A DNA stretch of 57,681 bases from Candidatus Woesearchaeota archaeon (GCA_964615505.1 CAZTOR010000001.1:1-57681), one strand, 5' to 3'. Numbered from the stretch's first letter, positions 1,371 through 29,817 are shown. Notes: a model not told the origin generated them from the sequence alone. A program made the numbers and translations.

Positions 1371-2975
1371 TTATACTTGATCTGGTAATTCTGGTTTAGA
1401 AGGTCTTGATGCAATTATATCATCAATTCGTAAAAGCATGATAGCTACGTCACTAGAAGAAGATATAGCTTGTGTTTTAATTTTTGCAGGTTCTATTACT
1501 CCTTTCTTCCACATATCTTCAACTTTTCCTGTATATACATTTAATCCTGCCCAAACCTCTCCAGAATCATGTTTTGATTTAAGTTCAGCAAGTGTATTTA
1601 TTGGATCCAATCCTGCGTTCTCTGCAAGAGTTATTGGAATTACCTCCAAACTATCTGCAAAAGCAGATATTGCTAGTTGTTCTCTGCCTGAAAACGAATC
1701 TGCATAATTTCTAATATTTCTTGAAAGCTCTAATTCAATAGATGATCCGCCAGCGATTATTTTCTTTGTTGAAACTGACGCAGCTAAATCGCCGATTGCA
1801 TCAGTTAGTGCTCGCTCAACTTCTGAAACTACGTGTTCGGTTCCACCTCTAACTAATAATGTAACTGCTTTAGCAGACTTGCATTTTTCAACGAATATCA
1901 TGTGTTCTCCTGATATTTTTCTTTCTTCGACTCTTCCAGCGTGTCCTAAATCTGATTTAGATATATCTTTTAGACTTGTTACTATGTTTCCACCGGTTGC
2001 TTTTGCCAATCTCTTCATATCTGATTCTTTCATTCTTCGAGTTGCAAAAATACCGTGTTTAGCTAAATAATGTTGAGCAACATCATCTATTCCTTTTTGA
2101 CAAAAAACTGCATTTGCACCAGTCGAAGCAATTTTTTCAACCATTTCTTTGAGCATCTTTTCTTCCTGTTCAACAAATTCTTGCATTTGGATTGGAGAAG
2201 TGATTTGTATTTTTGCATCAATTTCTGTTTCGGTGATTTCAATTGGTGCATCTAAAAGTAAAACCTTTGACATATTTACTAATCTAGGCATTGATGAATG
2301 AACACGCTCTTTATCTATGACAATCCCTTCAATTAATTCAGAGTTTTCTGTATCGTCTCCTGCCTTTTTTTCAATTTTAATGTCATTTAAATCTATTATT
2401 AACTGAGTTTTTGTTTCTTCAATTACGTTTGTTACTGCTTTAACTGCTAACTTTGAAAGTTTCTTCTTAGTTTCATATTCGACGTTCTTTCCGGTCATTG
2501 CAGTCGTTGCAATTTGTTCTAGCGTTTTCTTGTCTTTCAGAGTTATATTCTTAGATAATTTTGATAAAATTTCTTGAGATTTTCGTGCTGCCAGTTCGTA
2601 TCCTTTTGCAATTACAGTTGGGTGAATGTTCTTATCAAGCAATTTTTCTGCGTTACTTAGTAATTCTCCTGCCAAAATTACGGCAGTTGTAGTTCCATCG
2701 CCCACTTCAGATTCTTGTACCTTTGCAACTTCCACCAACATCTTTGCTGCTGGATGTTCTACTTCCATTTCATCCAGAATAGTTACTCCGTCGTTTGTTA
2801 TTGTGACGTGTCCAGATGAACTAACTATCATTTTGTCCATGCCTTTGGGACCTAACGTTGTTCTAACGGTATCTGCAAGTGCTTTTGCTGCTGCAATATT
2901 TGATTTTTGTGCATTTTTACCTTGGTTTCGAGTAGAACCTTCAGGTAAAATATAAATAGGTTGAACTGGATTCAT
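1371..2975 (-). CDS. ths: thermosome subunit (group II chaperonin, CCT/TCP-1 family)
   Basis: 534 aa. Contains LGPKGMDKM, the ATP-binding motif GDGTTT and VRGGTEHV, in the canonical thermosome length and order. Confidence 0.95.
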
Positions 2976-3051
2976 ATTTCTTCTTCAGAAGAAAACTTTT
3001 AAGGCTTCTTTTTGGCGGAATGTTTATTATTAAACGCAACATAATGAAGTT

Positions 3052-3468
3052 ATGTCTGATGAATTTGAATTAGTACCTTCTAAAAAGTTGAAGGAATTGG
3101 AATCTGAATTAAAGAAAATTAAATCGTTAGATAAGAAATCAAAGAATTCACCTAAAGAATATACTAATATTTTGAATTCAGTTCAGAAAATTGAAACTAA
3201 ATTCGAATTAACTGTGAAGAATTTGAATAAGTTAACTAATAAGTTGGACAATCTCCTAAAAATATTCTCGGGAGATATTGATGAAACAAGTGAAGAGGTT
3301 GATCAATTAGGCGAAATTTTATCAAGATTGGAAAAATTGGAAGGTTCACATGAATCTCTACGTCAGGAAACTCAAAATTTGCATTCTTCCATAAAACGTA
3401 AATCTTACTTTAACGAGCGTTTCCCGCGTGGTCTGAAAGTTAAATATAAACGGACAAAAAATCTGTAA
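3052..3468 (+). CDS. coiled-coil protein, function unknown (138 aa)
   Basis: Charged heptad-like sequence rich in Lys, Glu and Leu, with a basic C-terminal tail. No enzymatic motif. It lies between the thermosome gene and the pilin genes. Confidence 0.5.
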   Translation: MSDEFELVPSKKLKELESELKKIKSLDKKSKNSPKEYTNILNSVQKIETKFELTVKNLNKLTNKLDNLLKIFSGDIDETSEEVDQLGEILSRLEKLEGSHESLRQETQNLHSSIKRKSYFNERFPRGLKVKYKRTKNL

Positions 3469-3483
3469 GGTTTTTATATAAAT
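3469..3483 (+). promoter_or_regulatory. TATA-like box (ggtttttatataaat) for the main pilus operon
   Basis: Centred about 24 nt upstream of the ATG at 3500. No Shine-Dalgarno-like sequence lies between them. Confidence 0.45.
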
Positions 3484-3499
3484 AAGCAATATCTAATTC

Positions 3500-4030
3500 A
3501 TGTCAAAAGGATTAACTCCAGTTGTTGCTATGATTTTGTTATTGATGATGACAGTTGCTGCAGCAGGAGCTAGTTTTTATTGGTTAATTAAAATACAGGG
3601 GGAGCTTCAGGGCGGAACGCAACAATTTCAGGAACAGACTTTTGAAAGAATGACTTCAAATGTGGCTTGGCAAGATGCGAATTTTGATAGATCAACGAGA
3701 AATTTGACTATAAATCTATTGAATACAGGAACTACTAAGATACCTATTGCTAACCAGAGTTCTTCACCAAAAGCTCAATGGACGCTTTTAGATAGTGAAC
3801 AAGATATAATCTGTACTTCAGATTGGAACGGTACGGTAATTTCTTCAGATAATATACATTGTTGGAGCGGTTGCGATAGCGAATTAGGTTTGAAAGAATT
3901 AAGACTTATTAAATTAGAATTGAGAGACGGAGGAGATTGTGATATTGATGCTAAAGCAAATGATTCATTGATTTATGCAAAAATTTCATTTAGTGGTAAA
4001 ACTACTGCTTCAGGAACCTTTAGAAAATGA
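3500..4030 (+). CDS. archaeal type IV pilin (class III signal peptide), paralog 2
   Basis: N-terminus MSKG/LTPVVAMILLLMMTVAAAGASFYW. Has the same 4-Cys module (IICTS...HCWSGCD...GGDC) and a terminal ISFSGK. Confidence 0.8.
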   Translation: MSKGLTPVVAMILLLMMTVAAAGASFYWLIKIQGELQGGTQQFQEQTFERMTSNVAWQDANFDRSTRNLTINLLNTGTTKIPIANQSSSPKAQWTLLDSEQDIICTSDWNGTVISSDNIHCWSGCDSELGLKELRLIKLELRDGGDCDIDAKANDSLIYAKISFSGKTTASGTFRK

Positions 4031-4545
4031 GACGAAAAATGAATAAGAAGGGAATAACGCCAGTTATTGCGGTAATACTTTTGATGATGATGACAGTTGC
4101 TGCAGCAGGAGCTGCATTCTTCTGGTTCGTTAGAATACAAGGAGAACTTCAATCAGGTGGAGAAAATTATGCGTCAGAGTTAGGAGAAACTATAAACTCT
4201 AATGTTTATATTCAAGTCGCAGATCATGTTTCCGGAGATTTAGAAATATATGTTAAAAATACCGGAGGAGTAGATATACCTGTAAATATTGGAGCAGATT
4301 CACCAACAACTTCATTTGTATTACAACAAGGAGATGGAACAGTAATATGTCAAACATATCTCGGTAGTGCCGCCGCGGATTGTACTTCTGGATGTGGAAA
4401 TGATATACTCGTTGGTGAGACGCAAAAATTAGATATTGATTTGGCAGGTGATTGTTCTTTAAATTCTTATTCTGAAGATACTTCCATACATTTTACATTG
4501 GACTTTTCCGGTAAATCTGCAACAGGCGCCACTTTTGAAATATAA
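4027..4545 (+). CDS. archaeal type IV pilin (class III signal peptide), paralog 3
   Basis: N-terminus MRRKMNKKG/ITPVIAVILLMMMTVAAAGAAFFW. Has the 4-Cys module (VICQT...DCTSGCG...AGDC) and a terminal LDFSGK. Its start overlaps the stop of paralog 2 (ATGA). Confidence 0.8.
   Translation: MRRKMNKKGITPVIAVILLMMMTVAAAGAAFFWFVRIQGELQSGGENYASELGETINSNVYIQVADHVSGDLEIYVKNTGGVDIPVNIGADSPTTSFVLQQGDGTVICQTYLGSAAADCTSGCGNDILVGETQKLDIDLAGDCSLNSYSEDTSIHFTLDFSGKSATGATFEI
4072..4125. repeat. 54-nt segment identical to 867-920
   Basis: See 867-920. This is the second copy of the perfectly conserved pilin N-terminal coding segment. Confidence 0.9.
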
Positions 4546-4580
4546 GATAATTATTTAACTAAAAATAAGCTTGGATATCT

Positions 4581-6458
4581 ATGAAGCGCGGTTTGTCTAA
4601 TCTTATTGCATTTGTACTTGTAATCTTGATGACTTTGACAGTTGCTACTGCATTTTACTATTGGTTTACTGGAGTGCACTCTGATGCAATGAGTGCTTCT
4701 GAAACTTTTACTGGAGACATACAAAGTCAAGTAATAACTCAATCTACTTCCTTAATTGATCAATATTATAAAACAGATAACGAAAAAAATATGAATAATT
4801 TTGGTGAGATTACTCAAACAATTTGTGCCGAAGATAAAGGGATTAGTTTATCTGAAGATGATATTAGTTTTGAATTATATGAAGGTTATGGATCGAATCA
4901 AGAATTGATTTGCTCAGAATTTGGTGTGGATTGTAAATGTGACCAGTTAAATACAGCCATTGTTGGTGTATTAGGCGGGAATAATACACAAAACGGTATC
5001 ACTTTAATCTCTTCAACAGATGGTGAAAACTGGACTGAAAAAGTAGTAACTACTGATTTTGGAAATTATGATGAATTTGATTTTAGTTCAATCTCTACTT
5101 TTGTGGAAGGTGGGAATAATTGTACTAGCCCAATAAATATAATTTTGCACGGGTCTGCAAGACTTGATGTGGATGGCGGGTTGGGTGAAATTCCTGATAA
5201 TAAACCCAAATATATTGGATTGGTAGTTAACTCCTCTTTAGACGGCGTATCATATGATACAGCAGGAGTCGATTTGGAAAATGTGACTAAATATTTTGAC
5301 ATTACGCAAAGTCCACTTGAATCCGATGATACGTTAGAGCATCTGTTTAAAGGCGGAACTTTATTTTCTCCAACTCTTGGAACAAATCTAGAAGCAATTA
5401 TAACTCATCAGTTTTCGATTTACGATCGTCAAACACGACTTCCGGCTTTTGGAACGAACGGTCGGAGCATTAGTAATAGTGCAGTAACTGCAATTCAAAG
5501 AATTATTAGAAATGGGGAAAATCAATTATTGATTGGAGTTACATTAAATGATTCTAGCGGAGGATCATATATTGATGAAACTATAGACATAGCATCAGGT
5601 ATGGAAAAGAATTATCCGAGTGAATGTCCTTATGAGGTTACTAGTTTTGATGCGTGCGGTTATGATCCAACTCAGGCAGCTGCCTGTACCATTCAAATTG
5701 ACCAAGTTGCAGATATATTTTATGCCGATCAATTTGATGCTATGGTTTCATTAGAAAATTCAAAACCTGTGTTTATAGGTGTGCGTGGAAGGGATAAGGC
5801 AGGAAGAGGAGTAAATTCATTACTATATACCGGATATAATATGACCGAAACTGTAATTTACTGTCTAGATCTTAATGCTTTTGGAGCAGGATATGATTAT
5901 AGATTAAATGTAACAGATATAAAATATTTTGATAATTTGGGTACAGTTGCAGCATTCATAACTAGTGAAGAAGGTATTGCAAAAACTCAAGTTATAATGA
6001 TAAGACAAGAAGGTGAAAATTTGGTGCCTGTTCTGACGGATATACCTACTACTGTTTCCATTAAAACTTTTGCACAAATGGGAGACTATCTTTATGGAGG
6101 CGGTACTGATTACAGTGATGGTTTAATTTTTAGATATAAACTGGATGAAGAAGGCACTATTATAGATATAACGCAAGTTTACCAAAACACAGATTATCTT
6201 GAAGTTCAAAAACTTGAAACCATTAAATATTGTGCTGATCGAAACGTTTACTGTGTGGATGGATGTAACAAAGTCTTGAAAAGAGGTGAATGTTCTGACC
6301 TTACTCTTTCATTAGAAAATTCTGATTGCGATATTTCAAAATACAGTTATGAAACAGATTTTACTTCCAGATTAAATGTAGGTAATGATTTACAAATATT
6401 AAATGTTTTCACTAAAAAACAGAAAAGTAGTAAGGAGATAAACAGTACATTAATATGA
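4581..6458 (+). CDS. giant pilin-like protein (625 aa): class III signal peptide, large globular insert and pilin-type Cys module
   Basis: N-terminus MKRG/LSNLIAFVLVILMTLTVATAFYYWF. The C-terminus (YCADRNVYCVDGCNKVLKRGECSDLTLSLENSDC) repeats the C-x-[SD]GC ... L-x-[IL]-x-L ... C pattern of the three small pilins. The roughly 500 aa between them have no motif I can name. Confidence 0.65.
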   Translation: MKRGLSNLIAFVLVILMTLTVATAFYYWFTGVHSDAMSASETFTGDIQSQVITQSTSLIDQYYKTDNEKNMNNFGEITQTICAEDKGISLSEDDISFELYEGYGSNQELICSEFGVDCKCDQLNTAIVGVLGGNNTQNGITLISSTDGENWTEKVVTTDFGNYDEFDFSSISTFVEGGNNCTSPINIILHGSARLDVDGGLGEIPDNKPKYIGLVVNSSLDGVSYDTAGVDLENVTKYFDITQSPLESDDTLEHLFKGGTLFSPTLGTNLEAIITHQFSIYDRQTRLPAFGTNGRSISNSAVTAIQRIIRNGENQLLIGVTLNDSSGGSYIDETIDIASGMEKNYPSECPYEVTSFDACGYDPTQAAACTIQIDQVADIFYADQFDAMVSLENSKPVFIGVRGRDKAGRGVNSLLYTGYNMTETVIYCLDLNAFGAGYDYRLNVTDIKYFDNLGTVAAFITSEEGIAKTQVIMIRQEGENLVPVLTDIPTTVSIKTFAQMGDYLYGGGTDYSDGLIFRYKLDEEGTIIDITQVYQNTDYLEVQKLETIKYCADRNVYCVDGCNKVLKRGECSDLTLSLENSDCDISKYSYETDFTSRLNVGNDLQILNVFTKKQKSSKEINSTLI

Positions 6459-7057
6459 AAACTGGGCAAGCACAAATAGTTGGTTTTACTTTAGCAACGT
6501 TAATCATGTTGTCTGTGACCGCAGTAGTATTTATCTGGGCAAATCCTTTAATTCAAAATTCTAAAGATGTTAATGATTTGGACAGAATTGAGAATAGAAT
6601 GATTCTATTAGATAGTGCGATTAAAGAAGTGGCTACACAAAAATCTCAGAGAACTGTTGATTTTGAAATAAAGTCAGGAGATTTATTGATGGAGAGTGGC
6701 AGTAAACTAGTTTATTATACAAATATTGATTTACCGATTTCAAGTGGGGAAAAAATTGTTGTTCGAGGAGGGAATAAAACAGCAGGCGGTGCTTGCCTAA
6801 ATACTTCAACAAATGGTTCGATTGGAACAGATAGTTCGAGTTGTTTGATTCTTCAAGGCAGTGCGATTTATGAATTATATTATCCTGTATTGAAGGATAG
6901 TGTTAGTTGCTTTGCAATTAGGTTGAAGGCAGGTAATAATGCGGGAGTTGGTAAAGGTAAACATAAAATAAAATTAAAATATGATCACACAAACACAACT
7001 GCGGAAAATGGTTGTGGAACTATAACTAAACCAACTGTTGAGATAGATATAGAATGA
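6455..7057 (+). CDS. prepilin-like (minor pilin-like) protein, 200 aa
   Basis: N-terminus MKTG/QAQIVGFTLATLIMLSVTAVVFIW, followed by a Cys-containing extracellular-type sequence. ATGA overlap with the upstream gene. Confidence 0.55.
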   Translation: MKTGQAQIVGFTLATLIMLSVTAVVFIWANPLIQNSKDVNDLDRIENRMILLDSAIKEVATQKSQRTVDFEIKSGDLLMESGSKLVYYTNIDLPISSGEKIVVRGGNKTAGGACLNTSTNGSIGTDSSSCLILQGSAIYELYYPVLKDSVSCFAIRLKAGNNAGVGKGKHKIKLKYDHTNTTAENGCGTITKPTVEIDIE

Positions 7058-7515
7058 AGGGACAAGTAAGTATAGTTTATTTAGGTATATTGACAGTAAT
7101 AAGTTTGGCAATATTTGGCGTAATATTAGTATGGAATTTATCAATTAAAGATGCAAATACTGATTTGATTGTTGAGACTGAGATTAATAGTATACTTGAA
7201 AAAGTTGAGGCCGATATTTACTATATTGAAAGTTTGAATAAAAGTGGAGAATTTAAGATATATCGTTCTCTGCCTAACCGACTTGGTGAAGATTTCTATA
7301 CTATAACGCTACGCGCAGACGGGACAAGCAATTCTAAGGGCGGCTATTTGAATAATGACCAAATTATAATAACAAAAGATGCTAAACAAAGATTTACTTT
7401 ATCTAAAACTTATTTCAGTAAAGATATTTATACAGACCTATACATAATTCCTTCTTCAGTATCAGGTGGTGAATACACTCTGACTTCGAATAGCTCGGGC
7501 ATAAAAATTAACTAA
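7054..7515 (+). CDS. prepilin-like (minor pilin-like) protein, 153 aa
   Basis: N-terminus MKG/QVSIVYLGILTVISLAIFGVILVW. ATGA overlap with the upstream gene. Confidence 0.55.
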   Translation: MKGQVSIVYLGILTVISLAIFGVILVWNLSIKDANTDLIVETEINSILEKVEADIYYIESLNKSGEFKIYRSLPNRLGEDFYTITLRADGTSNSKGGYLNNDQIIITKDAKQRFTLSKTYFSKDIYTDLYIIPSSVSGGEYTLTSNSSGIKIN

Positions 7516-7547
7516 AAACATATATAATCTTGCCGACTATATTCGAC

Positions 7548-9224
7548 ATGGTCAATTCTAAAGCTCTTCGAATGCTTAAGAAAATTAAACAGAAGAATAC
7601 CTCACTCGTTGATTCTAATAAAATGGAGCATAAACTCAAAGTTGATGAAAAAATTGAAAAAACACTTAGAATTAAATTGCCCTCCGAACATTTGGACCAT
7701 AAAGAGAGTTCTGAAAATGTTTCAGAAGAATTGAAAAAGGTTGATGAAACTTATCCTCTGATTAGTACTTCTATCGGAGAAAAACAGATTAGCTTGGCTT
7801 ATACAAATATAAAATTTGATATTGAAAATCATACTTTAGTTTATACTCTAACTGAACCAATGTTAAATGAATATTCGCAAGAATTAGTTAATAAAACTGT
7901 TGAAGAACTTCATGAAAATTTAGACCTGGAATTCGGAAAGCTTACAGATAAATTAAAGATTCATGCTTATTTGAATAAAAAGATTGATGAAATTTGGGCA
8001 AAAATGGGTGTTGTTCCTGCAATCGATCATGCAATTAAAATGAAATATTATGTTTTTAGGCAAACACTGGGCCTAGAAAAAATTGATGCGCTAATGATGG
8101 ACCCAAATATTGAAGATATTAGCTGTGATGGAGTAGATTTGCCAATTTTTATCTTTCATCGTAACCCTTTATATGGCGAAATGGCCACAAATGTCAAATT
8201 TGATTCAAAGGAAGAATTAGATTCTTTTTGTATGCGATTGGCCCAAAAGGCAAATCGTTCTATCTCTGTCGCAAATCCGCTTATGGATGGTGCTCTTGAA
8301 GACGGTTCAAGAGTTCAAATAACTTATGGTACAGATATAGCTAGACGTGGAAGCAATTTTACAATAAGAAAGTTCTTCAAGACGCCATTGAGCCCAGTAG
8401 ATTTGATGAAATTTGGAACTGTAGATGCTATAACTTTGGCTTACTTGTGGTTTACTATTGAAAGAGAAAAATCGATATTAATTGCAGGTTCAACAGCGAC
8501 AGGTAAAACTACTTTTCTGAATGCAGTTTCATTATTTATACGTCCAAATGATAAAATTGTATCTATAGAAGATACTTCAGAATTACAATTACCTCATACA
8601 AATTGGTTGCCTCAAGTTACTCGAGCAGGTTTTGGTCCAAATAAATACGGTGAAATAGATATGCACCAATTATTGAAATCCTCCATGCGACAAAGACCAG
8701 ATTATCTAATTGTAGGGGAAGTCAGAGGTGTTGAAGCAGAAGTACTATTTCAGGCGATGGCAACAGGACATCCAGGATTATCCACAATTCATGCAGATAC
8801 AACCGAGGCGGTTATCGATAGATTATCTAACCCTCCGATTGAGTTACCTCTTTCGGTTTTACAGAATCTAGATATTATTATTTTCCTAGAAAAAATAAAG
8901 CGTGAAGGGAAATTCTTTAGAAAATTGGCAAAACTAGTAGAAGTTGAAGGTTTTGACTCAAAAGAAAAGGAATTGAAAGTTAATGATGCAATAATATGGA
9001 ATCCAGGAACTGATGAATTTGAAAAGAACGAGAGTTTTATTTTATCTCAAATTTCGAAGACTCATGCTGCTGAATCTTCAGCAATTTTAGAAGAAGTTAT
9101 GCGTAGGGCAAATATTCTAAAATGGATGAGTGAATCTGAAATTACAAGATTTGACGAGGTATCTAAAATTATCAAAATGTACTATGTTCATCCAAATTCT
9201 GTATTCGATTTGATGAAGAAATGA
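7548..9224 (+). CDS. type IV pilus assembly ATPase (FlaI/PilB/VirB11 secretion NTPase family)
   Basis: Walker A GSTATGKTT, Walker B region PDYLIVGEVRG and His-box region TGHPGLSTIHA. The ORF track starts at TTG 7530. The first in-frame ATG is 7548, 25 nt downstream of the TATA-like acatatataat (7518-7528). Confidence 0.85.
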   Translation: MVNSKALRMLKKIKQKNTSLVDSNKMEHKLKVDEKIEKTLRIKLPSEHLDHKESSENVSEELKKVDETYPLISTSIGEKQISLAYTNIKFDIENHTLVYTLTEPMLNEYSQELVNKTVEELHENLDLEFGKLTDKLKIHAYLNKKIDEIWAKMGVVPAIDHAIKMKYYVFRQTLGLEKIDALMMDPNIEDISCDGVDLPIFIFHRNPLYGEMATNVKFDSKEELDSFCMRLAQKANRSISVANPLMDGALEDGSRVQITYGTDIARRGSNFTIRKFFKTPLSPVDLMKFGTVDAITLAYLWFTIEREKSILIAGSTATGKTTFLNAVSLFIRPNDKIVSIEDTSELQLPHTNWLPQVTRAGFGPNKYGEIDMHQLLKSSMRQRPDYLIVGEVRGVEAEVLFQAMATGHPGLSTIHADTTEAVIDRLSNPPIELPLSVLQNLDIIIFLEKIKREGKFFRKLAKLVEVEGFDSKEKELKVNDAIIWNPGTDEFEKNESFILSQISKTHAAESSAILEEVMRRANILKWMSESEITRFDEVSKIIKMYYVHPNSVFDLMKK

Positions 9225-10090
9225 AGATATATCAGCGTGCAAATGAATTGTTTGGAAGCATAGTCAAAAATAATAATAAATATTTTAAAAAAATTGGTCC
9301 AAAATTAAAAATTGCAAGATTAGGAGTTCCAATTGAGGCATACGGTTCATTGATTATATTCTTGTCATTAGCGAGCTTCGGATTATCTTTTTTATTTTTA
9401 GAATTGATTGGACTTTTGACAATGGGTTTCAGTTTAATTGGTTTGGCAGTAAACTTTTTTGTTGCTTTATTTATTGGGTTAATAGTAGGAGGTTTTGTTT
9501 ATCTTTACCCTTCTTTTGTAATTAGTGAAAAAAAGGATAAAATTGAGAATTCATTAGCTTTTGTTTCAATCTACATGTCAACCCTATCTAAATCAGGGTT
9601 TGAACCTCAGAAAATATTTGGATTATTGAGTAAATTCAAAGACTATCCGGCTGCTGCAGAAGAATCTAGAAAAATAGATCATGAAGTTAATAAATTGGGT
9701 ATGGATTTGCGGACATCATTAGATAGAGCTATTGCTCGTTCGCCATCTCCTGAATGGACAGAGTTTTTGGCTGGAATAAAAAATAGTATTGAAGTCGGAG
9801 GTGATCTAAATAAATATTTAGATGAAAAGGCAAAGGGTTTTGTTCATGAATATAAACGAAAACTTCAATCTTTTGGTAAAACTTTGACTTTGTTAATGAA
9901 TTTATACATTACAATAATTATCGTTGGTACAATATTTTTCATTGTGGTTTCTTCGTTAATGGGTGCAGTTGGAGGGATATCAATATCTACGATTAAAGCA
10001 TTTCACTATCTAACTGTGTTTGCAGGATTACCGTTAATAACTACCGCATTGATATTACTAATTAAGAATTCATCACCATGGGCAGAATAA
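9221..10090 (+). CDS. TadC/FlaJ/PilC-like polytopic platform protein 1
   Basis: TM helices flank a T2SS-F-like cytoplasmic helical domain (AFVSIYMSTLSKSGFEPQKIF ... FLAGIKNSIEVGGDL). 4-nt overlap with the ATPase gene. Confidence 0.75.
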   Translation: MKIYQRANELFGSIVKNNNKYFKKIGPKLKIARLGVPIEAYGSLIIFLSLASFGLSFLFLELIGLLTMGFSLIGLAVNFFVALFIGLIVGGFVYLYPSFVISEKKDKIENSLAFVSIYMSTLSKSGFEPQKIFGLLSKFKDYPAAAEESRKIDHEVNKLGMDLRTSLDRAIARSPSPEWTEFLAGIKNSIEVGGDLNKYLDEKAKGFVHEYKRKLQSFGKTLTLLMNLYITIIIVGTIFFIVVSSLMGAVGGISISTIKAFHYLTVFAGLPLITTALILLIKNSSPWAE

Positions 10091-11220
10091 AAGAGTTAAT
10101 GAGAAATAAGAAATTGTTTTACACAGCTCTTGCTCTTCCTGCTCCCTTTATTCTGGCACTGGCTGCGTTTTTAATGGGCGCAAGTAGTACCACCATTATT
10201 GCTTTACTTTCAATCGGTCTAATTATCGTAGTTCTACCTTCCATTTGGATATCCTTCAAAGAATTTTCTGAAATAAAGTCTGCCGAAGATCAATTTCCAC
10301 ACTTTCTAGAAGACTTGTCTCAATCTGCATCTGCAGGAATGACTCTCCCTCAAGCAATATCTGTGGCGAGTAAAACACATTACGGTAAATTAACGAGTCA
10401 TATCAAACAACTTAATATCTGGTTGTCGTGGAGTCAAGCTTTTCCAAAAGCCTGGGAAAAATTTACAAAACGTTTAGCTGCGAGTCAGTTAATCCGTAGA
10501 GTTAATGCAATTATTCTTGAAGCATTCCATAGCGGAGGAGATGTTAAAAAAACACTTGGTTCTCTTGCTGAAGATGTTAACATAATAAAAGATATGGAAT
10601 CTGAACGAAAATCAATAATGCATCAACAGATTATAATTATGTATATAATCTTTTTTGTATTTGTTGGAGTAATAATTGCGCTTTACAAAATCTTGTCTCC
10701 GATTCTATATGTTCAGCAAATTGGTTCATTCTCAGGAATTGGTATACAAGAAGGTGGCGCTAAACTAACAATTGAATATTTCCGAAATTTATTTTTCCTT
10801 ATGACCTTAGTTGAAGCAATTTGTGCAGGCCTAATTGCAGGTCAAATTGCTGAAGAAAGATTAGTTGCAGGAATTAAGCATGTAGTGATTATGGTTTCAG
10901 CAAGCGTTTTTGTATTCTTTGTATTTGTATTTCCGGCAGAACTATCTGTCGAAATTTCTGTATTCCCAACAGAGGCACCAATAGATAGCAAAATTACAGT
11001 TGTAGGTAAGGTCTTCTCCGAGGGAGCTCCAGTTTCAGGAGCAGATGTAATAATTACGGATAGTTCAGGGCTTCCTAAGCAAATCTTTACGGATAATTCA
11101 GGAGAATTTAGGTACTTTTGGGCAACTCCTGAACAAGCCGGAGAATATAATATTCATATAACTATTGAAGATGAAAAAGGTACGAAAAATTTCGTTCGAA
11201 CAGTTAGAGTAATTAGCTAA
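10078..11220 (+). CDS. TadC/FlaJ/PilC-like platform protein 2 with a C-terminal beta-sandwich-like extension
   Basis: T2SS-F-like segments (FLEDLSQSASAGMTLPQAI ... AIILEAFHSGGDV) and TM helices. The last 90 aa or so (ITVVGKVFSEGAPVSGADVIITDSSGLPKQIFTDNSGEFRYFWATPEQAGEYNIHI) resemble a carboxypeptidase-regulatory/Ig-like fold. Confidence 0.75.
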   Translation: MGRIKELMRNKKLFYTALALPAPFILALAAFLMGASSTTIIALLSIGLIIVVLPSIWISFKEFSEIKSAEDQFPHFLEDLSQSASAGMTLPQAISVASKTHYGKLTSHIKQLNIWLSWSQAFPKAWEKFTKRLAASQLIRRVNAIILEAFHSGGDVKKTLGSLAEDVNIIKDMESERKSIMHQQIIIMYIIFFVFVGVIIALYKILSPILYVQQIGSFSGIGIQEGGAKLTIEYFRNLFFLMTLVEAICAGLIAGQIAEERLVAGIKHVVIMVSASVFVFFVFVFPAELSVEISVFPTEAPIDSKITVVGKVFSEGAPVSGADVIITDSSGLPKQIFTDNSGEFRYFWATPEQAGEYNIHITIEDEKGTKNFVRTVRVIS

Positions 11221-12242
11221 TGAAAAAAGGATATGTTGTAGGAGAGTATATTATTGTAACATTTTTTTTCCTAATCTTATTTGTAGGCATTGTAGATAGA
11301 GTTGTTTTAATTACTTCGGAAGAAGTAGATTTAGCACAAGATTATGAATCTTGTGCAAATTCAGAGAGAATTTTTAAGGAGCTGGTAGATAATGAGGTTG
11401 AGGTTGCGAAATACGGTATAAGTTCTGACACGGGTACAGTAAATTATGATTCAATTAAATATATTTATGACAACAAAAATCTATCTAACTATAATAATGA
11501 TACAAATAAAAGCGATTCATTTAAGTTGGCGTATGAAATAAAGGGTTTTGATGTTCAGTCTGCTTATTCTACACCGAGAGAAGATATTAGTCAATCAGGT
11601 AGAGATTCACCTGTAGCCCAAATTTGGTTAAATCACACTAATGGCTCTAATTCTTCACTTGTTCAAAATGTAATTGGAATAGGCTCTGCTAAAAATACCT
11701 CTGGAGCAAGTGACGTATATCTAACTATTGAGATGGTGATTCCAAATGCTACTTTGATTAATAGTTATACTGACTCAGGATATTGTTCGCATCTAGGTGC
11801 AGGTGATACAGTGACATATACTCAAAAATCATATGGGCTTTTAGTAAATTATAATTCTAAGATTAACAATGGTTGCGACCATAGATATATTGCTTATACG
11901 ACCAACAAAACTACGCTTTCTGATTGGGATGAACATTGGACTAGGTATGGTCCAAATTTCGGTCCAATTCAAGATATTCAACGAAATAATAATTTAATTT
12001 TTATCAGAGATATTTCGTTTAGGAGTAAAACATTGGATAAAGATTATCCCGTCTATCTCGGTAATGATACTTTAGCTAAACTTGAATGGGGTGCACCTTC
12101 AGCAAATGGTTGTGAATACAAACGACTTTACAAAATTAAAGATGATGATTCATTTTTAATAAATCAGAGTATATTTGATGAAGAGCATGAAGTGAATATA
12201 TCTCGAAATTTTATGGGGGAAATTAAAGTAACTTCAATATGA
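11220..12242 (+). CDS. prepilin-like secreted protein, 340 aa, rich in N-x-S/T sequons
   Basis: N-terminus MKKG/YVVGEYIIVTFFFLILFVGIV, with Glu at +5 after the putative Gly cleavage site. It has 4 Cys and about a dozen N-x-S/T sequons. TAATG junction with the upstream gene. Confidence 0.5.
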   Translation: MKKGYVVGEYIIVTFFFLILFVGIVDRVVLITSEEVDLAQDYESCANSERIFKELVDNEVEVAKYGISSDTGTVNYDSIKYIYDNKNLSNYNNDTNKSDSFKLAYEIKGFDVQSAYSTPREDISQSGRDSPVAQIWLNHTNGSNSSLVQNVIGIGSAKNTSGASDVYLTIEMVIPNATLINSYTDSGYCSHLGAGDTVTYTQKSYGLLVNYNSKINNGCDHRYIAYTTNKTTLSDWDEHWTRYGPNFGPIQDIQRNNNLIFIRDISFRSKTLDKDYPVYLGNDTLAKLEWGAPSANGCEYKRLYKIKDDDSFLINQSIFDEEHEVNISRNFMGEIKVTSI

Positions 12243-12610
12243 ACAAGCGCGGTTATGTATATTTCATTGAAATAATATTTGCAGTAGTTTTGGCATTTTC
12301 CTTATTTACTTCTCTACAAGTCACTTCACTTCAACAAGATAGGAATATTGAAATTAATTCGTTGATTGCCTATGATTTACTTCGAGAGCTGAATGGACAT
12401 GATATAATTTCTGATGAAGAACCATATAATTCCGAATTTGTTGAAGATTATGTGGACGCGTATTTGCCAGATACTTTTGGGTTTTACCTTACTAATGGAA
12501 CAGTTAACCTTCCAATAAGTAATTATGATTTAAGTTATGCAGAATATACCTATAAAGATTCAACCGGAGGATGGTCTACACTTAAATTATATATATGGAG
12601 TAAACTATGA
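12239..12610 (+). CDS. prepilin-like protein, 123 aa
   Basis: N-terminus MNKRG/YVYFIEIIFAVVLAFSLF. ATGA overlap with the upstream gene. Confidence 0.5.
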   Translation: MNKRGYVYFIEIIFAVVLAFSLFTSLQVTSLQQDRNIEINSLIAYDLLRELNGHDIISDEEPYNSEFVEDYVDAYLPDTFGFYLTNGTVNLPISNYDLSYAEYTYKDSTGGWSTLKLYIWSKL

Positions 12611-13233
12611 AAGGACAATTCTTTATCTCAGGTGTTGTAGTAATTGCAGTTATCTTACTCGTTTCTATGACTTATGCAAATAGTGCTGAAGAGCTTCGGA
12701 TTTATGGCGGAAATGATTTGGCTTTTGAAAATTATAAGAATGCTTATGAAGACGCAGTGCCCGATGATTGGATTGATACTCACTACGATAGCAGAAAAGT
12801 AATTGGTATTTGTGTGGATGATCCTACTTCATCAGCTTATTTTAATACAACAGTTCAATTTTCTGTTAGTACAGATTGTAAAAAGGAATTATATTCGACA
12901 ACCCCTTTTTTAATTGAATATGTTGGCGGTGGTTTAACTTCTTGCAATATTGTAATTCAGCCGTCTTCATTAAGTCTTAATTCCAAAAATTGTACATCCT
13001 TGTATATATACTACAACGGAAGTATGAGTAACGATATTCCAAATGTTGGTGATACTGCAGGAGATGTAAATGGTTCTTTAATTGATTTTATATCAATCTC
13101 AACAAGTCCTCATAGCGAGTTAGTTACTAATTATCGCGAGAAAAATATTTTAGTTAGTGAGACTTCAAGTACAAATAAAATATATAATGTAAGTTACAAA
13201 TCAAATAGAATTGATTATACCGGTCAACTTTAG
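12607..13233 (+). CDS. prepilin-like protein, 208 aa
   Basis: N-terminus MKG/QFFISGVVVIAVILLVSMTY. It has 4 Cys and several N-x-S/T sequons. ATGA overlap with the upstream gene. Confidence 0.5.
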   Translation: MKGQFFISGVVVIAVILLVSMTYANSAEELRIYGGNDLAFENYKNAYEDAVPDDWIDTHYDSRKVIGICVDDPTSSAYFNTTVQFSVSTDCKKELYSTTPFLIEYVGGGLTSCNIVIQPSSLSLNSKNCTSLYIYYNGSMSNDIPNVGDTAGDVNGSLIDFISISTSPHSELVTNYREKNILVSETSSTNKIYNVSYKSNRIDYTGQL

Positions 13234-19477: not shown

Positions 19478-21955
19478 ATGAGTAAGCAATCCGAATATAT
19501 TGATTTTAGTGAAATTTTAAACTTATTGAAAAAGAGTTACTTGAAAGTTAGAAATTTTAAATATCTTGAACATTCCTTGTTTGGTTTGATTGCAGTTTTA
19601 GCTTTATTTTTGAGGACTAGGAATATATCTCTGTTAAAGGGTAAATATTTAGTTGGTCTTGATCCCTATTATTATTTTAGACAAGCAAAAGAAATTATTA
19701 ATCAAGGATTCTTAACATCACCAGATCTATTTAGGAATCCGCCAATTGGACATGAGCCTTCGCTTGATTTTTTCCCTTATTTTATGGCCTACTGGTCTAA
19801 ATTTCTTAGTTTATTTGGATTGAATCAAGAAATGGCGCATATAATTTACCCTCCTGCCATAATGTTGATTTCATTAATTCCATTTTACTTATTTGTAAAA
19901 AATGTTTTTGGTAAAAAAATTGGTTTAATTTCGGCATTACTTCTTTCCATAATACCAGGATATATTTTTCGAACAGGTTCTGGATTTGCAGATCACGAAT
20001 CGTTAGCAATGTTATTTGTATTTAGTGCACTTTATTTCTTTAGCAGAGGTTTGGATTTTAAATCAAATAAAAAATACGTATATGGAATTGCCGCAGGTTT
20101 ATTCACTTGGTTAATGGCAATGTCTTGGAGCGCATATCCTTTCTTAGTAATTACGATCTCATTATTTTATCTTTTCAAGTTCTTCTTCTCTAAAATAGAT
20201 TTGAGATATTATCTTACGTGGGTATTAACGTTCTCGATATTATTAATTCTATTTGGAAAATTCGATATTAGCAATTACGGTATTCTTATTGCTCTTGCGA
20301 CGCTATTTATTTTAGTTATTAATCGAGTTATTTCTGATTTTGATTTTAAGATGCCTAATCAAGTATCTTCTGTAATTATTGCAATTTTTGTAGGTATTAC
20401 TATTAATTATATTTTCAAAATTATTGATTTGACATCTTTAGTCTTTAATTTACTGAATGCAGGAGGTTCATCAAAAGTAGATTTCACTACTTCCGAAGTC
20501 AGTCGAGCTTTTGTTATGAGCGGGAATAGTTATTTTTCCAATTACGGTTATCTAATTTTTATTTCCATATTAGGCCTATTCTTACTTTCTTCAGTAATAT
20601 TTGGTAAATTAAAAAAGAGTAATAGGCTGATATTGACAAGTCTCACTGTAGGTTCGGTGACCTTGGTTATGTTAGGTAACTGGAGTTATTCAATTAGTAT
20701 AATGCAGGATTTATATCTACAATTCTTAGCATCAGTTGGAATTATATTCATACTCTATTATTCTTACTTATATCAATCTAATCAAATCGAAAAAGTTCAG
20801 AATCTGGCAAATCCTAAACTTTTGTTGATATTATCGCTATTTATAACATCTGGCCTTCTTGCAAGAACGGCTACTCGATTTTTGTTTCTTTTTGGGCCTG
20901 CCGTAGTAATATTGGCAGCATATGCATTAAATGAACTCTATATTCACTCTAAAAAATTGAAGTTTGGACCAATTGTAGCAATAATTGTATTTGCAATATT
21001 ATCTTTTAATCTTGCAGAAATTAGTTATAATCAAAATAGTAGAACTGGCTCAGGTCTTCCTGGTCAATGGGAGAGTTCGATGATGTTTCTAGATTCTAGT
21101 ACTTCTGAAGATTCAATAATTGCTCATTGGTGGGACTACGGTTATTGGACACAATCTGTCGGAAATAGGGCATCGGTACAAGACGGAGGTAAACCAGGCG
21201 GAGGGTTTATGATATATACTCTTGCGCGTTATGGTATGACTCATACTGATCCAGTTGAATCATTAGAGTACTTTAAGGCTCACGGTACAACTCATTTATT
21301 ATACTCTTCAGAAGAAATTGGTAAGTATGGTGCCTTTTCATATCTTGGTTCAGATAAAAATGATGATCGTAAGTCAATGATCGGTATGTTTGGTCTTTCA
21401 GCGATTAACGAAGTTAGATCAGGGAATAAATTAACTTATCAAGGCAATTGGCAACTAGATGATACGTTAATTGATGGTAAAAAAATAATTCTTCCAGGAC
21501 AAGGATATATTTCAGAAATAAATGTTTATGTGGATGACGTTGGAGTTTATGCTCCTGCTACTGTAAAGATTATTGCATCAAATTATGTTAATGAATTTGA
21601 AATTGGATGTATATATTTACATGACACAAAATTCATATTTGAAGAAAATGAATTAAATTCATGTGTAAAGGTAATTCCGAATAGTAACGGCGGAAATAGG
21701 AACGATTTGGGCGGTGCATTATACTTATCTGAAAAAGTTAAGGACGGTCTATTTGCAAAACTCTATATTCATTCTGAACAAATTGAAGGGTATTCTCAAA
21801 TATATTATGATAATATTCCGCTATCTTTCTTTAAAGGTAGGTTGATGGGACCAATAAAGATCTGGAAACTTGATTATCCGAATAACTTAAATAATGTTGA
21901 TAGATTTTTAGATGAGGCTAAATTGCCCGAATTTAAAGAAAATTATATCTTATGA
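19478..21955 (+). CDS. aglB: archaeal oligosaccharyltransferase AglB (STT3 family)
   Basis: 825 aa. Multi-TM N-terminal half, the catalytic WWDYG motif (AHWWDYGYWTQ) and a soluble C-terminal domain. Confidence 0.85.
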   Translation: MSKQSEYIDFSEILNLLKKSYLKVRNFKYLEHSLFGLIAVLALFLRTRNISLLKGKYLVGLDPYYYFRQAKEIINQGFLTSPDLFRNPPIGHEPSLDFFPYFMAYWSKFLSLFGLNQEMAHIIYPPAIMLISLIPFYLFVKNVFGKKIGLISALLLSIIPGYIFRTGSGFADHESLAMLFVFSALYFFSRGLDFKSNKKYVYGIAAGLFTWLMAMSWSAYPFLVITISLFYLFKFFFSKIDLRYYLTWVLTFSILLILFGKFDISNYGILIALATLFILVINRVISDFDFKMPNQVSSVIIAIFVGITINYIFKIIDLTSLVFNLLNAGGSSKVDFTTSEVSRAFVMSGNSYFSNYGYLIFISILGLFLLSSVIFGKLKKSNRLILTSLTVGSVTLVMLGNWSYSISIMQDLYLQFLASVGIIFILYYSYLYQSNQIEKVQNLANPKLLLILSLFITSGLLARTATRFLFLFGPAVVILAAYALNELYIHSKKLKFGPIVAIIVFAILSFNLAEISYNQNSRTGSGLPGQWESSMMFLDSSTSEDSIIAHWWDYGYWTQSVGNRASVQDGGKPGGGFMIYTLARYGMTHTDPVESLEYFKAHGTTHLLYSSEEIGKYGAFSYLGSDKNDDRKSMIGMFGLSAINEVRSGNKLTYQGNWQLDDTLIDGKKIILPGQGYISEINVYVDDVGVYAPATVKIIASNYVNEFEIGCIYLHDTKFIFEENELNSCVKVIPNSNGGNRNDLGGALYLSEKVKDGLFAKLYIHSEQIEGYSQIYYDNIPLSFFKGRLMGPIKIWKLDYPNNLNNVDRFLDEAKLPEFKENYIL

Positions 21956-22629
21956 AAACAACAATTGTGATCCCTGCATTTAATGAGGGAAAGAGAATTG
22001 GTAAAGTTCTTTCTAAGTTGGATAAGTACTCTTACAAAATAATTGTAATTAATGACGGTTCATCAGATGATACAGAAAATGTTGTTAAACAATTTAAACG
22101 AGTTAAGTTAATCAACCATAAAAATAATTCTGGGCAAGGTGCAGCATTAAGAACAGGGATTCGTGCAGCGCTAAAAGATAAATCAGATATTATTGTTACT
22201 TTTGATGCAGACGGTCAACATAAAGCAAGCGATATAAAGAAATTTATTACTAAAATTAATGAAGGTTATGAAGTAGTATTGGGTTCTCGTTTTATTAAAA
22301 AAACAAAACTGCCGCTAAAGCGTAAATTTTTGTTGAAAGGCAGTATCCTTGTTGAACGTTTGTTTATTGGCATTAAACTTACTGATGCACATAATGGTTT
22401 TAGAGCTTTTTCTTCTAAAGCTGCACGCAGAATAAAGATTAAAGAAAATGGGATGGCTCATGCATCTGAAATAGTATATAGAATTAAAGAAAACAAGCTT
22501 AAGTATGCTGAAATTCCTATCAGCATTAAATATACTCGTGATACTCTTTCAAAGGGCGGGAACACCGTACCTCGAGCAATGAAAATACTATATAAACTAA
22601 TAAAATTAAGATTTCGTGTTCAAACATAA
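21952..22629 (+). CDS. GT2 glycosyltransferase (dolichyl-phosphate sugar synthase-like)
   Basis: IVIPAFNE, NDGSSDDT and FDADGQH (DxD) motifs of GT-A family 2. ATGA overlap with aglB. Confidence 0.8.
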   Translation: MKTTIVIPAFNEGKRIGKVLSKLDKYSYKIIVINDGSSDDTENVVKQFKRVKLINHKNNSGQGAALRTGIRAALKDKSDIIVTFDADGQHKASDIKKFITKINEGYEVVLGSRFIKKTKLPLKRKFLLKGSILVERLFIGIKLTDAHNGFRAFSSKAARRIKIKENGMAHASEIVYRIKENKLKYAEIPISIKYTRDTLSKGGNTVPRAMKILYKLIKLRFRVQT

Positions 22630-22661
22630 TACATATAAATTGAATCTGAAAGGAGTTTTTA

Positions 22662-23240
22662 ATGGATATTGATAAAATAATCAAACAAAGCATTGATGTT
22701 AAGACTAGTTTGTTAGATGCGGACTTTATCTCAGAATTAGAGAAGGTTGGACAAGTATGTGTCGATGTATTGAAAAAAGGGAATAAAATACTTGCTGCAG
22801 GTAATGGCGGAAGTTCATCCCAAGCAAGCCACTTTATTGGAGAATTGCTTGGTAGATTTGAATTGGATAGATCTGCACTTCCCGGAGTTTGCCTATCTTC
22901 TGATTTAACTAACTTAACTGCAATTTCAAATGATTATGGTTATGACCACGTTTTCTCTAAACAAGTAGAAGGACTTGGAAAAGAGGGCGATATTTTTGTC
23001 GGTCTAACTACTTCAGGAAATTCTGAAAATATTATTAGAGCTTTAGAAAAAGCGAAAAAAAATGGACTACAAACCATTGTTTTGAATGGTAGAGATGGAG
23101 GCATCCTGAAAAATTCAGACTTAGTTGATTTCAATCTTATTGTAAAGGATGAAAATACTGCCAGAATTCAGGAAAGCCATATCTTGATAATTCATATTAT
23201 TTGTAAATATATTGAAGATGGATTATTCAAAAATTCTTGA
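22662..23240 (+). CDS. gmhA: phosphoheptose (sedoheptulose-7-phosphate) isomerase GmhA
   Basis: SIS domain with AAGNGGSSSQASHFIGEL and GLTTSGNSENI. The 192-aa length is typical of GmhA. Confidence 0.85.
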   Translation: MDIDKIIKQSIDVKTSLLDADFISELEKVGQVCVDVLKKGNKILAAGNGGSSSQASHFIGELLGRFELDRSALPGVCLSSDLTNLTAISNDYGYDHVFSKQVEGLGKEGDIFVGLTTSGNSENIIRALEKAKKNGLQTIVLNGRDGGILKNSDLVDFNLIVKDENTARIQESHILIIHIICKYIEDGLFKNS

Positions 23241-24186
23241 TTTTGTTAAGAATAATAGTTTCAGCGAAAGGAATATTTTAGTAATTGGAGACATAATGCT
23301 TGATGAATTCTGTTATGGTTTTGCAAATAGAATTAGTCCTGAGGCACCTGTTCCTGTTTTTGAACCAAATAATTCAAAATATATGTTGGGTGGTGCAGGG
23401 AATTCAGCATTGAATCTTAAGACTCTCGGATCAAATGTTGAAATAATTGGGATAATTGGTGAAGATGATAGTGCTGATAAAATTAGTGAACTATTGCGTA
23501 ATTTTAAAATAAAAAACCGGTTGATATCGGATAAATTTTCTACTACTCACAAAAAAAGATTTGTTGCATCAAATACTCACTTATTAAGAAAAGATGTTGA
23601 AAAAATTAGGGATATTAACGGTAGTGAAACAGAAAAAAAGATAATCAATGTAATTGATTCAATTCAGAATATTGATGCTATAATAATATCGGATTATGCA
23701 AAAGGCGTGATAACCAAAGACATCGTTGATCAATTGAAAAATAAAGGTGTGCCGATTTATGTTGATTCTAAACCTGAAAGATATGATTTATTCGACGAAG
23801 TATATTTATTAAAACCGAATTTGCGACAGGCCATGATGGCATTAGGAATTCGGAGAGATGAATTAAGAGTTGAAGAAATTGCATTAAATCTATCTAAGAA
23901 ATATAATTCAAATATTTTTCTTACGCTAGGTGACCAAGGTTCACTAATACATGAATTGGACTCTGAAAAAAGTAATTTGATTCAAATATTTGATAAGAAA
24001 AAATTGAAAGATGTTAGTGGTGCAGGAGATACTGCATTATCTGCCTTTGTATTAGCTAGTCTAGAAAAAGATTTAGTTTTCTCTGCAGAATTTGCGAATA
24101 TATGTTCAGGAATGGTTGTATCAAAATCCGGTACTTCGAGTACCTCTTTAGATGAAATAGAGGTTGAACTAACTAATGGAAAATAA
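23212..24186 (+). CDS. hldA: D-glycero-beta-D-manno-heptose-7-phosphate kinase (RfaE domain I / HldA)
   Basis: N-terminal VIGDIMLDEF...RISPEAPVPV is the RfaE-I signature. Also has the PfkB-family C-terminal motif VSGAGDT. The start may instead be the ATG at 23218. Confidence 0.85.
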   Translation: MKMDYSKILDFVKNNSFSERNILVIGDIMLDEFCYGFANRISPEAPVPVFEPNNSKYMLGGAGNSALNLKTLGSNVEIIGIIGEDDSADKISELLRNFKIKNRLISDKFSTTHKKRFVASNTHLLRKDVEKIRDINGSETEKKIINVIDSIQNIDAIIISDYAKGVITKDIVDQLKNKGVPIYVDSKPERYDLFDEVYLLKPNLRQAMMALGIRRDELRVEEIALNLSKKYNSNIFLTLGDQGSLIHELDSEKSNLIQIFDKKKLKDVSGAGDTALSAFVLASLEKDLVFSAEFANICSGMVVSKSGTSSTSLDEIEVELTNGK

Positions 24187-29816: not shown

Positions 29817-29817
29817 A

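Follow-up and report, generated by a model that had tools for sequence, protein, structure and literature searches.

A contig of 57,681 bp from a Candidatus Woesearchaeota archaeon (CAZTOR010000001.1) carries, between positions 822 and 13233, a locus that, judged from its sequence, probably allows this DPANN (Nanoarchaeia-like) archaeon to build a complete, non-motile type IV pilus, most likely used for adhesion to a surface, a partner or a host. The locus consists of nine pilin-like open reading frames (ORFs) that flank one ATPase of the GspE/FlaI family and a platform protein divided over two genes. It has the features of the type IV filament superfamily: a secretion ATPase, a platform with two T2SSF domains (here spread over two genes) and pilins recognized by TIGR02537, the NCBIfam model of the archaellin/type IV pilin N-terminal domain. 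The whole contig, referred to below as the window, is AT-rich (~33% GC) and densely packed with archaeal housekeeping genes, including those for the thermosome, Hel308, SecD, SecF, AglB, the large subunit of PolD, PolB, LonB, CDC48, topoisomerase I, Hef and RadB.

Components of the locus

An earlier note on this DNA had listed prepilin-like ORFs starting at 822, 3500, 4027, 4581, 6455, 7054, 11220, 12239 and 12607, and all nine were found. The range that it gave for the locus, 3500–13233, did not hold, since the ORF at 822 falls outside it. The genes are indeed chained mostly by short overlaps: of the 12 junctions between 3052 and 13267, eight are overlaps (six ATGA, one TAATG and one of 13 nt) and four are gaps of 14–35 nt. 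(All locus genes described here lie on the plus strand.) The thermosome gene (within 1371–3468), a conserved neighbor of the pilus locus in several DPANN lineages, lies between pilin gene 822 and the main cluster. Upstream of pilin 3500 lies a gene for a cytoplasmic coiled-coil protein of 138 residues (3052–3468), which has no transmembrane (TM) segment, gives generic coiled-coil matches and is probably an accessory or regulatory component.

The assembly ATPase (7530–9224; 564 residues, TTG start) belongs to the GspE/VirB11/FlaI family (Pfam T2SSE, E = 6e-35). Its nucleotide-binding motifs are intact, comprising the P-loop GSTATGKT, an EDTSEL box, LIVGEVRG and a TGHPGLSTIH box. Among NCBIfam models, FlaI scores 400.5 bits (cut-off 550) and BasE 212, and among solved structures AfGspE (2OAP) scores 358 bits, FlaI of S. 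acidocaldarius 266 and CpaF 132. The C-terminus gives a weak match to PilB3_C (E = 0.0055) that stays under the cut-off. An exact look-up of the ATPase sequence found no match, perhaps owing to the TTG start call.

The platform is encoded by two adjoining genes with one T2SSF domain each: an N-half of 289 residues with six predicted TM segments (9221–10090; Pfam E = 1e-15) and a C-half of 380 residues (10078–11220; E = 1.7e-14). On the 555 positions of the ArlJ model, the former covers 5–248 and the latter 302–541. The two TadC/FlaJ-type proteins reported earlier are therefore both present, but they are the N- and C-halves of a single FlaJ-type platform. An Ig-like/CarboxypepD_reg-like beta-sandwich is fused to the C-terminus of the C-half, at about 10966–11217 (CarboxypepD_reg match at residues 307–362, E = 4.6e-5, under the cut-off). 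The TM count predicts that this domain is extracellular. Protein lengths suggest that several DPANN orthologs have it (372–409 residues) and that those of Asgard archaea and Bathyarchaeia lack it (271–332 residues).

In each of the nine pilin-like proteins, a few basic N-terminal residues up to a K/R-(x)-G motif precede a hydrophobic stretch of about 20 residues, which is the only TM segment. Among the 48 non-overlapping ORFs of at least 140 residues in the window, this class III pattern occurs in eight, all of them locus genes, and the ninth ORF, at 12239, which at 123 residues is under the size filter, shows it as well. A scan of ORFs of at least 35 residues from all start codons added nothing beyond internal starts and one protein with two TM segments (607–825), so within the contig the class III-type N-termini reported earlier are confined to the locus. 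The strict FlaFind expression is satisfied by five of the nine N-termini. TIGR02537 (cut-off 20) recognizes three proteins, at 822 (39 bits), 4027 (37.3) and 3500 (29.3); 4581 is borderline at 19.8 bits, and the model is silent for 6455, 7054, 11220, 12239 and 12607. These last five rest on the motif and the hydrophobic helix, and the motif is kept among the orthologs in four of the five families. The nine proteins are also set apart by composition, in agreement with the earlier description of them as rich in cysteine and sequons. N-x-S/T sequons amount to 1.88 per 100 residues, as compared to 0.55 elsewhere in the window (3.4-fold; 41 observed vs. 12 expected, Poisson P = 4e-11), and cysteine makes up 1.74% of residues, against 0.68% elsewhere (2.6-fold).

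The proteins at 822–1370 (182 residues, motif KGVT), 3500–4030 (176 residues, motif KGLT, four sequons) and 4027–4545 (172 residues) are PilA-like paralogs that share a pattern of four cysteines, C..C-x2-GC..C; all four are conserved in pilin 822, and pilin 3500 likewise has four. Pilins 3500 and 4027 are the candidate major filament subunits. The latter weakly matches archaeal pilin or "flagellin" filament subunits in the Protein Data Bank (PDB), namely 8FK7 (E = 0.0099), 9MYG and 3J1R. The first 117 nt of genes 822 and 4027 are 92% identical, as compared to ~45% identity in the remaining protein. This direct repeat (819–935 and 4024–4140) spans the start, signal peptide and N-terminal helix of both pilins, and suggests gene conversion or a very strong constraint on the 5' segment. 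A box, TTTATATA, lies ~25 nt 5' of the ATG of pilin gene 3500 (within 3469–3499) and would fit a leaderless transcript of 3500 with its own promoter.

The largest of the nine is a modular pilin of 625 residues (4581–6458; motif RGLS), in which a PilA-type N-terminus and a cysteine-rich C-terminus surround an insert of ~450 residues. It is rare: searches of 5.8e9 and 1.84e9 proteins yielded three homolog clusters and 29 representatives, respectively. The N-terminus is of the canonical class III type in all of its relatives, which range from 550 to 2357 residues and have both terminal parts in common; LamG/ConA lectin modules occur in three of them. Because of these shared termini and the lectin modules in some relatives, 4581 was marked as a modular pilin of the adhesin type and is probably an adhesin.

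The remaining ORFs, at 6455, 7054, 11220, 12239 and 12607, represent five distinct accessory families, here called up1, up2, d1, d2 and d3. When profiles of the DPANN families were compared with profiles of their Asgard counterparts, the position-matched pairs were recovered with probabilities of 98.3% (up1; E = 1.4e-14), 87.8% (up2; 3.3e-6), 87.2% (d1; 3.9e-6), 83.1% (d2) and 74.5% (d3; 2.7e-5), and all 20 mismatched pairs stayed at 17.7% or less. The Pfam matches, mostly sub-threshold, likewise follow gene position: DUF7289 for up1, DUF7266 for up2, DUF7287 for d1, DUF7288 for d2 and DUF7261 for d3. (These are presumably haloarchaeal families; a literature search on DUF7261, DUF7266 and DUF7287–7289 gave nothing.)

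Up1 (6455–7057; 200 residues) has homologs directly upstream of the ATPase in at least 11 DPANN and Asgard loci, those of Asgard archaea carrying PF23960. Up2 (7054–7515; 153 residues, motif KGQV) is a pilin-like or membrane-anchored protein, and the DUF7266 matches of its family are sub-threshold in loci L004 and L021. The three downstream families each keep their own N-terminal signature. D1 (11220–12242; 340 residues, 12 sequons) begins with MKKG-YVVGEY, and its DPANN and Asgard orthologs read K/R-[GA]-Q-x-x-x-[ED]-[FY], with a conserved acidic residue at +5. D2 (12239–12610; 123 residues) begins with KRG-YVYFIE, and the pattern in its orthologs, KG-F-x-x-x-[IL]-E, includes a conserved Glu at +6; acidic residues at these positions are as in classical type IV pilins. 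D3 (12607–13233; 208 residues), which evolves fast, begins with MKG-QFFISG, its orthologs reading K[GA]Q-x-[FIY]-I. The d2 ortholog of Asgard locus L054 matches PF23959 at 36.1 bits (cut-off 27). In other DPANN archaea d2 is enlarged to 394–715 residues (L013:7099–8283, L005:13832–15424, L007:14683–16767 and L016:10357–12504), and in one Micrarchaeota locus it bears FG-GAP repeats of the integrin-alpha-like beta-propeller type. In the lineage of the window d2 is minimal, and a large module is found on a separate, PilA-derived pilin instead.

Conservation among DPANN and Asgard archaea

The gene order of the window is identical in a close relative, L081 (SRA run SRR11455652). Flanking housekeeping genes are 83–92% identical between the two, the ATPase and the platform halves 83–89%, and the coiled-coil protein (83%), pilins 3500 (84%) and 4027, up1 and up2 fall within 82–89%. 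Identity is 73–75% for d1 (75%) and d2, 57% for 4581, as compared to about 84% for the genes adjoining it, and 49% for d3. From these identities, all genes of the locus have been maintained, with 4581 and d3 diverging fast, and the values of 73–89% for most components, next to 83–92% for flanking housekeeping genes, indicate purifying selection. Among public sequences, the ATPase has its closest relative (70% identity) in L001, a contig from Tara Oceans (run ERR599082; CAJWSY010000039.1) with the segment from the ATPase to d3, in which the core proteins are 67–70% and d1–d3 31–33% identical to those of the window (d1, 33%). L001 is labeled as an "uncultured Chloroflexi bacterium" and is probably mis-binned, since its gene content is that of an archaeal pilus locus.

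Wider comparison drew on GTDB species genomes, from which the 80 loci with the closest ATPases were taken. A recurrent order in DPANN archaea is (thermosome), coiled-coil protein, pilins, up1, up2, ATPase, FlaJ-N, FlaJ-C and two or three pilin-like genes, as seen in Nanoarchaeia, Nanohalarchaeota, Micrarchaeota, Aenigmatarchaeota and unclassified DPANN. Asgard loci of the Heimdall, Hod and Borrarchaeum types have the same flanking set, but the coiled-coil gene follows the platform. The coiled-coil proteins, of 140–205 residues, align between DPANN and Asgard archaea at only 15–25% identity, so their homology is unproven beyond position. Nearly all of the 80 loci have the ATPase together with FlaJ-N and FlaJ-C, and this split platform is common to DPANN, Asgard, Bathyarchaeia, Thermoplasmata and Methanocellales.

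Nanopusillus species and Nanobdellota YN1 (L006, L010, L022 and L026, around 7800–11500) keep the thermosome, the coiled-coil protein, up1, up2 and the ATPase. The ATPase of these four loci has no adjoining platform or d1–d3 genes. YN1 also has a separate archaellum (PMC11420986).

Function of the filament

How would such a filament be built? Prepilins would enter the membrane and be cut after the K/R-G motif by an A24 peptidase encoded elsewhere. The hexameric ATPase (7530–9224) would then drive the platform formed by the two half-size FlaJ/TadC proteins (9221–11220), and the five accessory proteins, on the model of the minor pilins and pseudopilins of bacteria, might form an initiation or tip complex that primes or caps the fiber. 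The fiber itself would be built from pilins 822, 3500 and 4027, probably stabilized by disulfides and N-glycosylated by the nearby AglB, and would carry the 625-residue modular pilin as an adhesin. Of the functions considered, adhesion, perhaps to a host cell, has the best support, though as an inference. Of the attachment role proposed in the earlier note, adhesion is reasonable and is strengthened by the family of modular pilins; host attachment is still inference. Tad-like pilus clusters of DPANN archaea and a proposed role in host interaction have been published (PMC9563170; 10.64898/2026.04.22.720090).

Several observations weigh against a complete adhesive pilus. Five of the nine proteins have, by themselves, no significant match to any pilin model. 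In the up2 family the K/R-G motif has been lost in Asgard archaea, Nanopusillus and L013, and since several lineages show this loss, up2 may be anchored in the membrane instead of being processed as a pilin. An AlphaFold2 model of up1 (71-sequence alignment) has a helix at residues 3–62 followed by beta strands, with a predicted local distance difference test (pLDDT) score of 56.7; a Foldseek search of the PDB with this poor model gave nothing at E ≤ 0.001, so 6455 is assigned neither to ArlF/G nor to the pseudopilins. The tip complex is pure analogy. The adhesin role of 4581 is taken from its relatives, since its own insert of ~450 residues contains no recognizable domain; a sequence search of the PDB with 4581 found no match, and AlphaFold2 (5-sequence alignment) gave a pLDDT of 35.6 and no usable model. 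(The weak Foldseek matches of this low-confidence model are all beta-propellers, a lead at most for the fold of the insert.) The last point concerns the peptidase. A profile scan of all polytopic proteins of the 57.7-kb contig (SecD, SecF, a SpoIIM-like protein, AglB, a flippase and a presenilin-type PSH) revealed no A24 peptidase, and the contig contains no GxGDxK motif. A tblastn search with L054:8982–9803, an Asgard protein that looks PibD-like by its N-terminal motif only, found no match in the window or the other fetched loci. Processing of the prepilins is thus assumed.

The absence of a prepilin peptidase, noted earlier, is therefore true of the locus and of this contig, and holds for that contig only. 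As a notable trait it falls away, since PibD/FlaK-type peptidases are commonly encoded apart from pilus loci (PMC4858521), and DPANN archaea with TadV have been reported (PMC9563170). Outside Epd, an archaeal pilus locus with no peptidase gene is nothing unusual. Two other candidates were considered. A presenilin/SPP-type intramembrane aspartyl protease (PSH-like) is encoded at 41322–42104 on the plus strand, with YD, GTGD and PAL motifs, and is the sole GxGD protease on the contig; as a substitute prepilin peptidase it was rejected, since it matches PSH/SPP rather than A24 and has no link to the locus. Bathyarchaeial proteins with five TM segments upstream of the ATPase were also set aside as peptidases, their neighbors and N-termini pointing to what appears to be an ABC/ECF-type transporter.

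The machinery could also serve uptake, as a short pseudopilus or bindosome-like structure that displays lectin-type or other binding modules and scavenges glycans, DNA or other nutrients that the cell, being metabolically reduced, is unable to make. The LamG/ConA modules in relatives of 4581 would suit such a role; in one preprint, type IV filament machineries are proposed to scavenge substrates by means of class III binding proteins (10.64898/2026.04.22.720090), and DNA import through pili has been proposed for DPANN archaea (PMC9563170). However, the locus includes no substrate-binding protein of the ABC type, no ABC transporter and no ComEC-like channel, a retraction ATPase is missing, and three PilA-like pilins of the abundant type with conserved disulfide patterns suggest a real fiber, so an uptake apparatus is unlikely.

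A cell-cell bridge or attachment organelle, such as a filament passing through the cone portal of Nanobdellota YN1, is improbable for the window. The intercellular filaments of YN1 are ~6.6 nm wide and their components are unidentified (PMC11420986), and the segment of thermosome, coiled-coil protein, up1, up2 and ATPase retained by YN1 and Nanopusillus makes a connection conceivable. On the other hand, the ATPase there adjoins neither a platform nor d1–d3, so that the homologous module is incomplete, and the organism of the window belongs to a different, marine lineage. The broader conjecture, that the conserved DPANN module (coiled-coil protein, up1, up2, ATPase, split platform, d1–d3 and lineage-specific modular adhesin pilins) makes an attachment-organelle or bridge filament as in YN1, is a long shot; if it were true, the fast-evolving giant pilin would set host specificity.

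A degenerate or atypical archaellum for swimming is very improbable, even though FlaI is the best NCBIfam match of the ATPase, ArlF/ArlG weakly match the N-termini of 3500 and 4027, and Arch_flagellin weakly matches 822 and 3500: the ArlI model (NF058587) reaches 400.5 of the required 550 bits, ArlF and ArlG 25.5 or less of 110 and Arch_flagellin 24.1 or less of 29.5, the ATPase is nearer to AfGspE than to FlaI, the equivalent of ArlJ is divided over two genes, the window encodes no ArlH (its sole RecA/KaiC-like gene is RadB; TIGR02237, 189.8 vs. cut-off 172.4) and no ArlC/D/E or ArlX (the coiled-coil protein having no TM segment), and the 80 closest ATPase loci include none laid out like an archaellum. 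The archaellum is thereby largely refuted, and the earlier statement that the locus encodes a pilus rather than an archaellum stands, with ArlH absent, ArlJ split and the archaellin, ArlF, ArlG and ArlI models all under cut-off.

What, then, does the adhesive pilus add? How DPANN archaea recognize and hold their hosts is an open question, and genome surveys of their Tad-like pilus clusters found no pilins that could be annotated (PMC9563170). The locus offers a full parts list: the major pilins, five accessory proteins whose order recurs in Asgard archaea, and a modular pilin that diverges rapidly. Its useful contributions are an annotation of pilins overlooked in DPANN surveys, the set of five accessory families that Asgard archaea also have, and a candidate adhesin in the fast-evolving modular pilin. 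The five families may constitute an ancient archaeal equivalent of the tip complex that minor pilins form in bacteria, common to DPANN and Asgard archaea and so far undescribed, a proposal that is better supported than that of a bridge filament. Since the machine is of a known type, the value lies in annotation and choice of targets rather than in a new principle: the proteins of the locus are concrete candidates for proteomics, labeling in cryo-electron tomography and heterologous expression.

Relation to known filament systems and neighboring genes

The core machinery is filed as clade 2-like, a provisional placement made because AfGspE is the closest solved ATPase and the traits that define Epd are absent. 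AfGspE (AF0659 of Archaeoglobus fulgidus) itself is in clade 2, arCOG01817, to which most ATPases of N. equitans and Nst1 also belong, and many clade 2 loci have two tadC genes (Makarova et al. 2016). The euryarchaeal PilA-based adhesion pili of clade 2, or "system 2" (PilB3C3 and PilA1–6 of Haloferax volcanii; AfGspE), resemble the window in their PilA-type N-termini and several paralogous major pilins, in an ATPase nearest to AfGspE (358 bits) with a weak PilB3_C match at its C-terminus, and in accessory proteins related to DUF7261, DUF7266 and DUF7287–7289, presumably haloarchaeal families. There are also differences. H. volcanii encodes PilA in trans, whereas here pilins and machinery share one operon; system 2 has a single platform gene (10.64898/2026.04.22.720090), whereas here the platform is split; and the window adds the lineage-specific giant modular pilin and the Ig-like domain on the platform C-half. 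MinD/FleN, usually a stand-alone gene in clade 2 (Makarova et al.), was recognized in none of the window ORFs listed or scanned, which were not all of them.

The Epd pilus of Methanococcus maripaludis (clade 1, or "system 1") is similar: one ATPase is accompanied by two platform genes, a single operon unites many pilin-like genes, and some components are adhesin-like. Its major pilin is devoid of a globular domain, and a peptidase is encoded within the Epd loci themselves (10.64898/2026.04.22.720090). The window, by contrast, has no dedicated peptidase of the EppA type (9 TM segments) and no short major pilin like EpdE/Flp: its PilA-like pilins, of 172–182 residues, have a globular part, and apart from the two-TM protein at 607–825 no ORF of 35–120 residues has a class III N-terminus. 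Among the 80 closest ATPase loci there are none from Methanococcales, Methanobacteriales or Thermococcales. Thus, the Epd-like label of the earlier note keeps its basis in the two-gene platform but is not supported by the AfGspE-closest ATPase, the globular pilins and the missing EppA. The two-platform arrangement is not specific to Epd either, being present in almost all of those 80 loci and across many phyla. Nor is there support for the earlier view that the pilin-like proteins go beyond characterized systems: the Epd locus has 11 genes, and the nine here comprise three major pilins, one modular pilin and five conserved accessory proteins. A 2026 preprint places DPANN among the lineages with the two-platform "system 1" on the basis of MacSyFinder (10.64898/2026.04.22.720090), so its scheme might file such loci as Epd-like.

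Bacterial systems offer more distant likenesses. Bacterial Tad/Flp pili (CpaF/TadA, TadB and TadC) share with the locus a CpaF-related ATPase of the VirB11 type (132 bits) and two platform proteins with a single T2SSF domain each, but the window has no short pilin of the Flp type and no secretin or other outer-membrane parts, and its ATPase scores 146.6 bits on the TadA model (cut-off 373). PilB/PilC of Streptococcus sanguinis, with their grafted adhesive modules, and tip adhesins of the PilY1 type are likewise built as a pilin scaffold bearing a large non-pilin module, as with the LamG/ConA modules in relatives of 4581 and the FG-GAP modules on d2 of other DPANN archaea, and an accessory pilin set plausibly located at the tip is a further resemblance. 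However, there is no sequence homology to these bacterial modular minor pilins, which belong to another domain of life, and the module of 4581 itself has no assigned domain.

Two neighbors of the locus may be mentioned. A small protein of 72 residues with two TM segments (607–825), whose membership of the locus is uncertain, has a K-G-L-L motif and overlaps the start of pilin 822 by 4 nt. Its homologs adjoin the thermosome in L081 (85% identity) and L004 (39%). It was rejected as an Flp-like pilin for its second TM segment and because the motif is missing in L004. Six kb downstream of the sequon-rich pilins, the AglB/STT3 oligosaccharyltransferase is followed by a glycan-synthesis cluster (19478–31991, plus strand) with genes for a GT2 glycosyltransferase, a SIS/GmhA-like isomerase, a PfkB kinase, a cytidylyltransferase-like protein, two GT9 proteins (heptosyltransferase family), GT4/GT1 proteins, a methyltransferase and a Wzx-type flippase. 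The set of SIS, kinase, nucleotidyltransferase and GT9 proteins looks like an ADP-heptose-type pathway in an archaeon.

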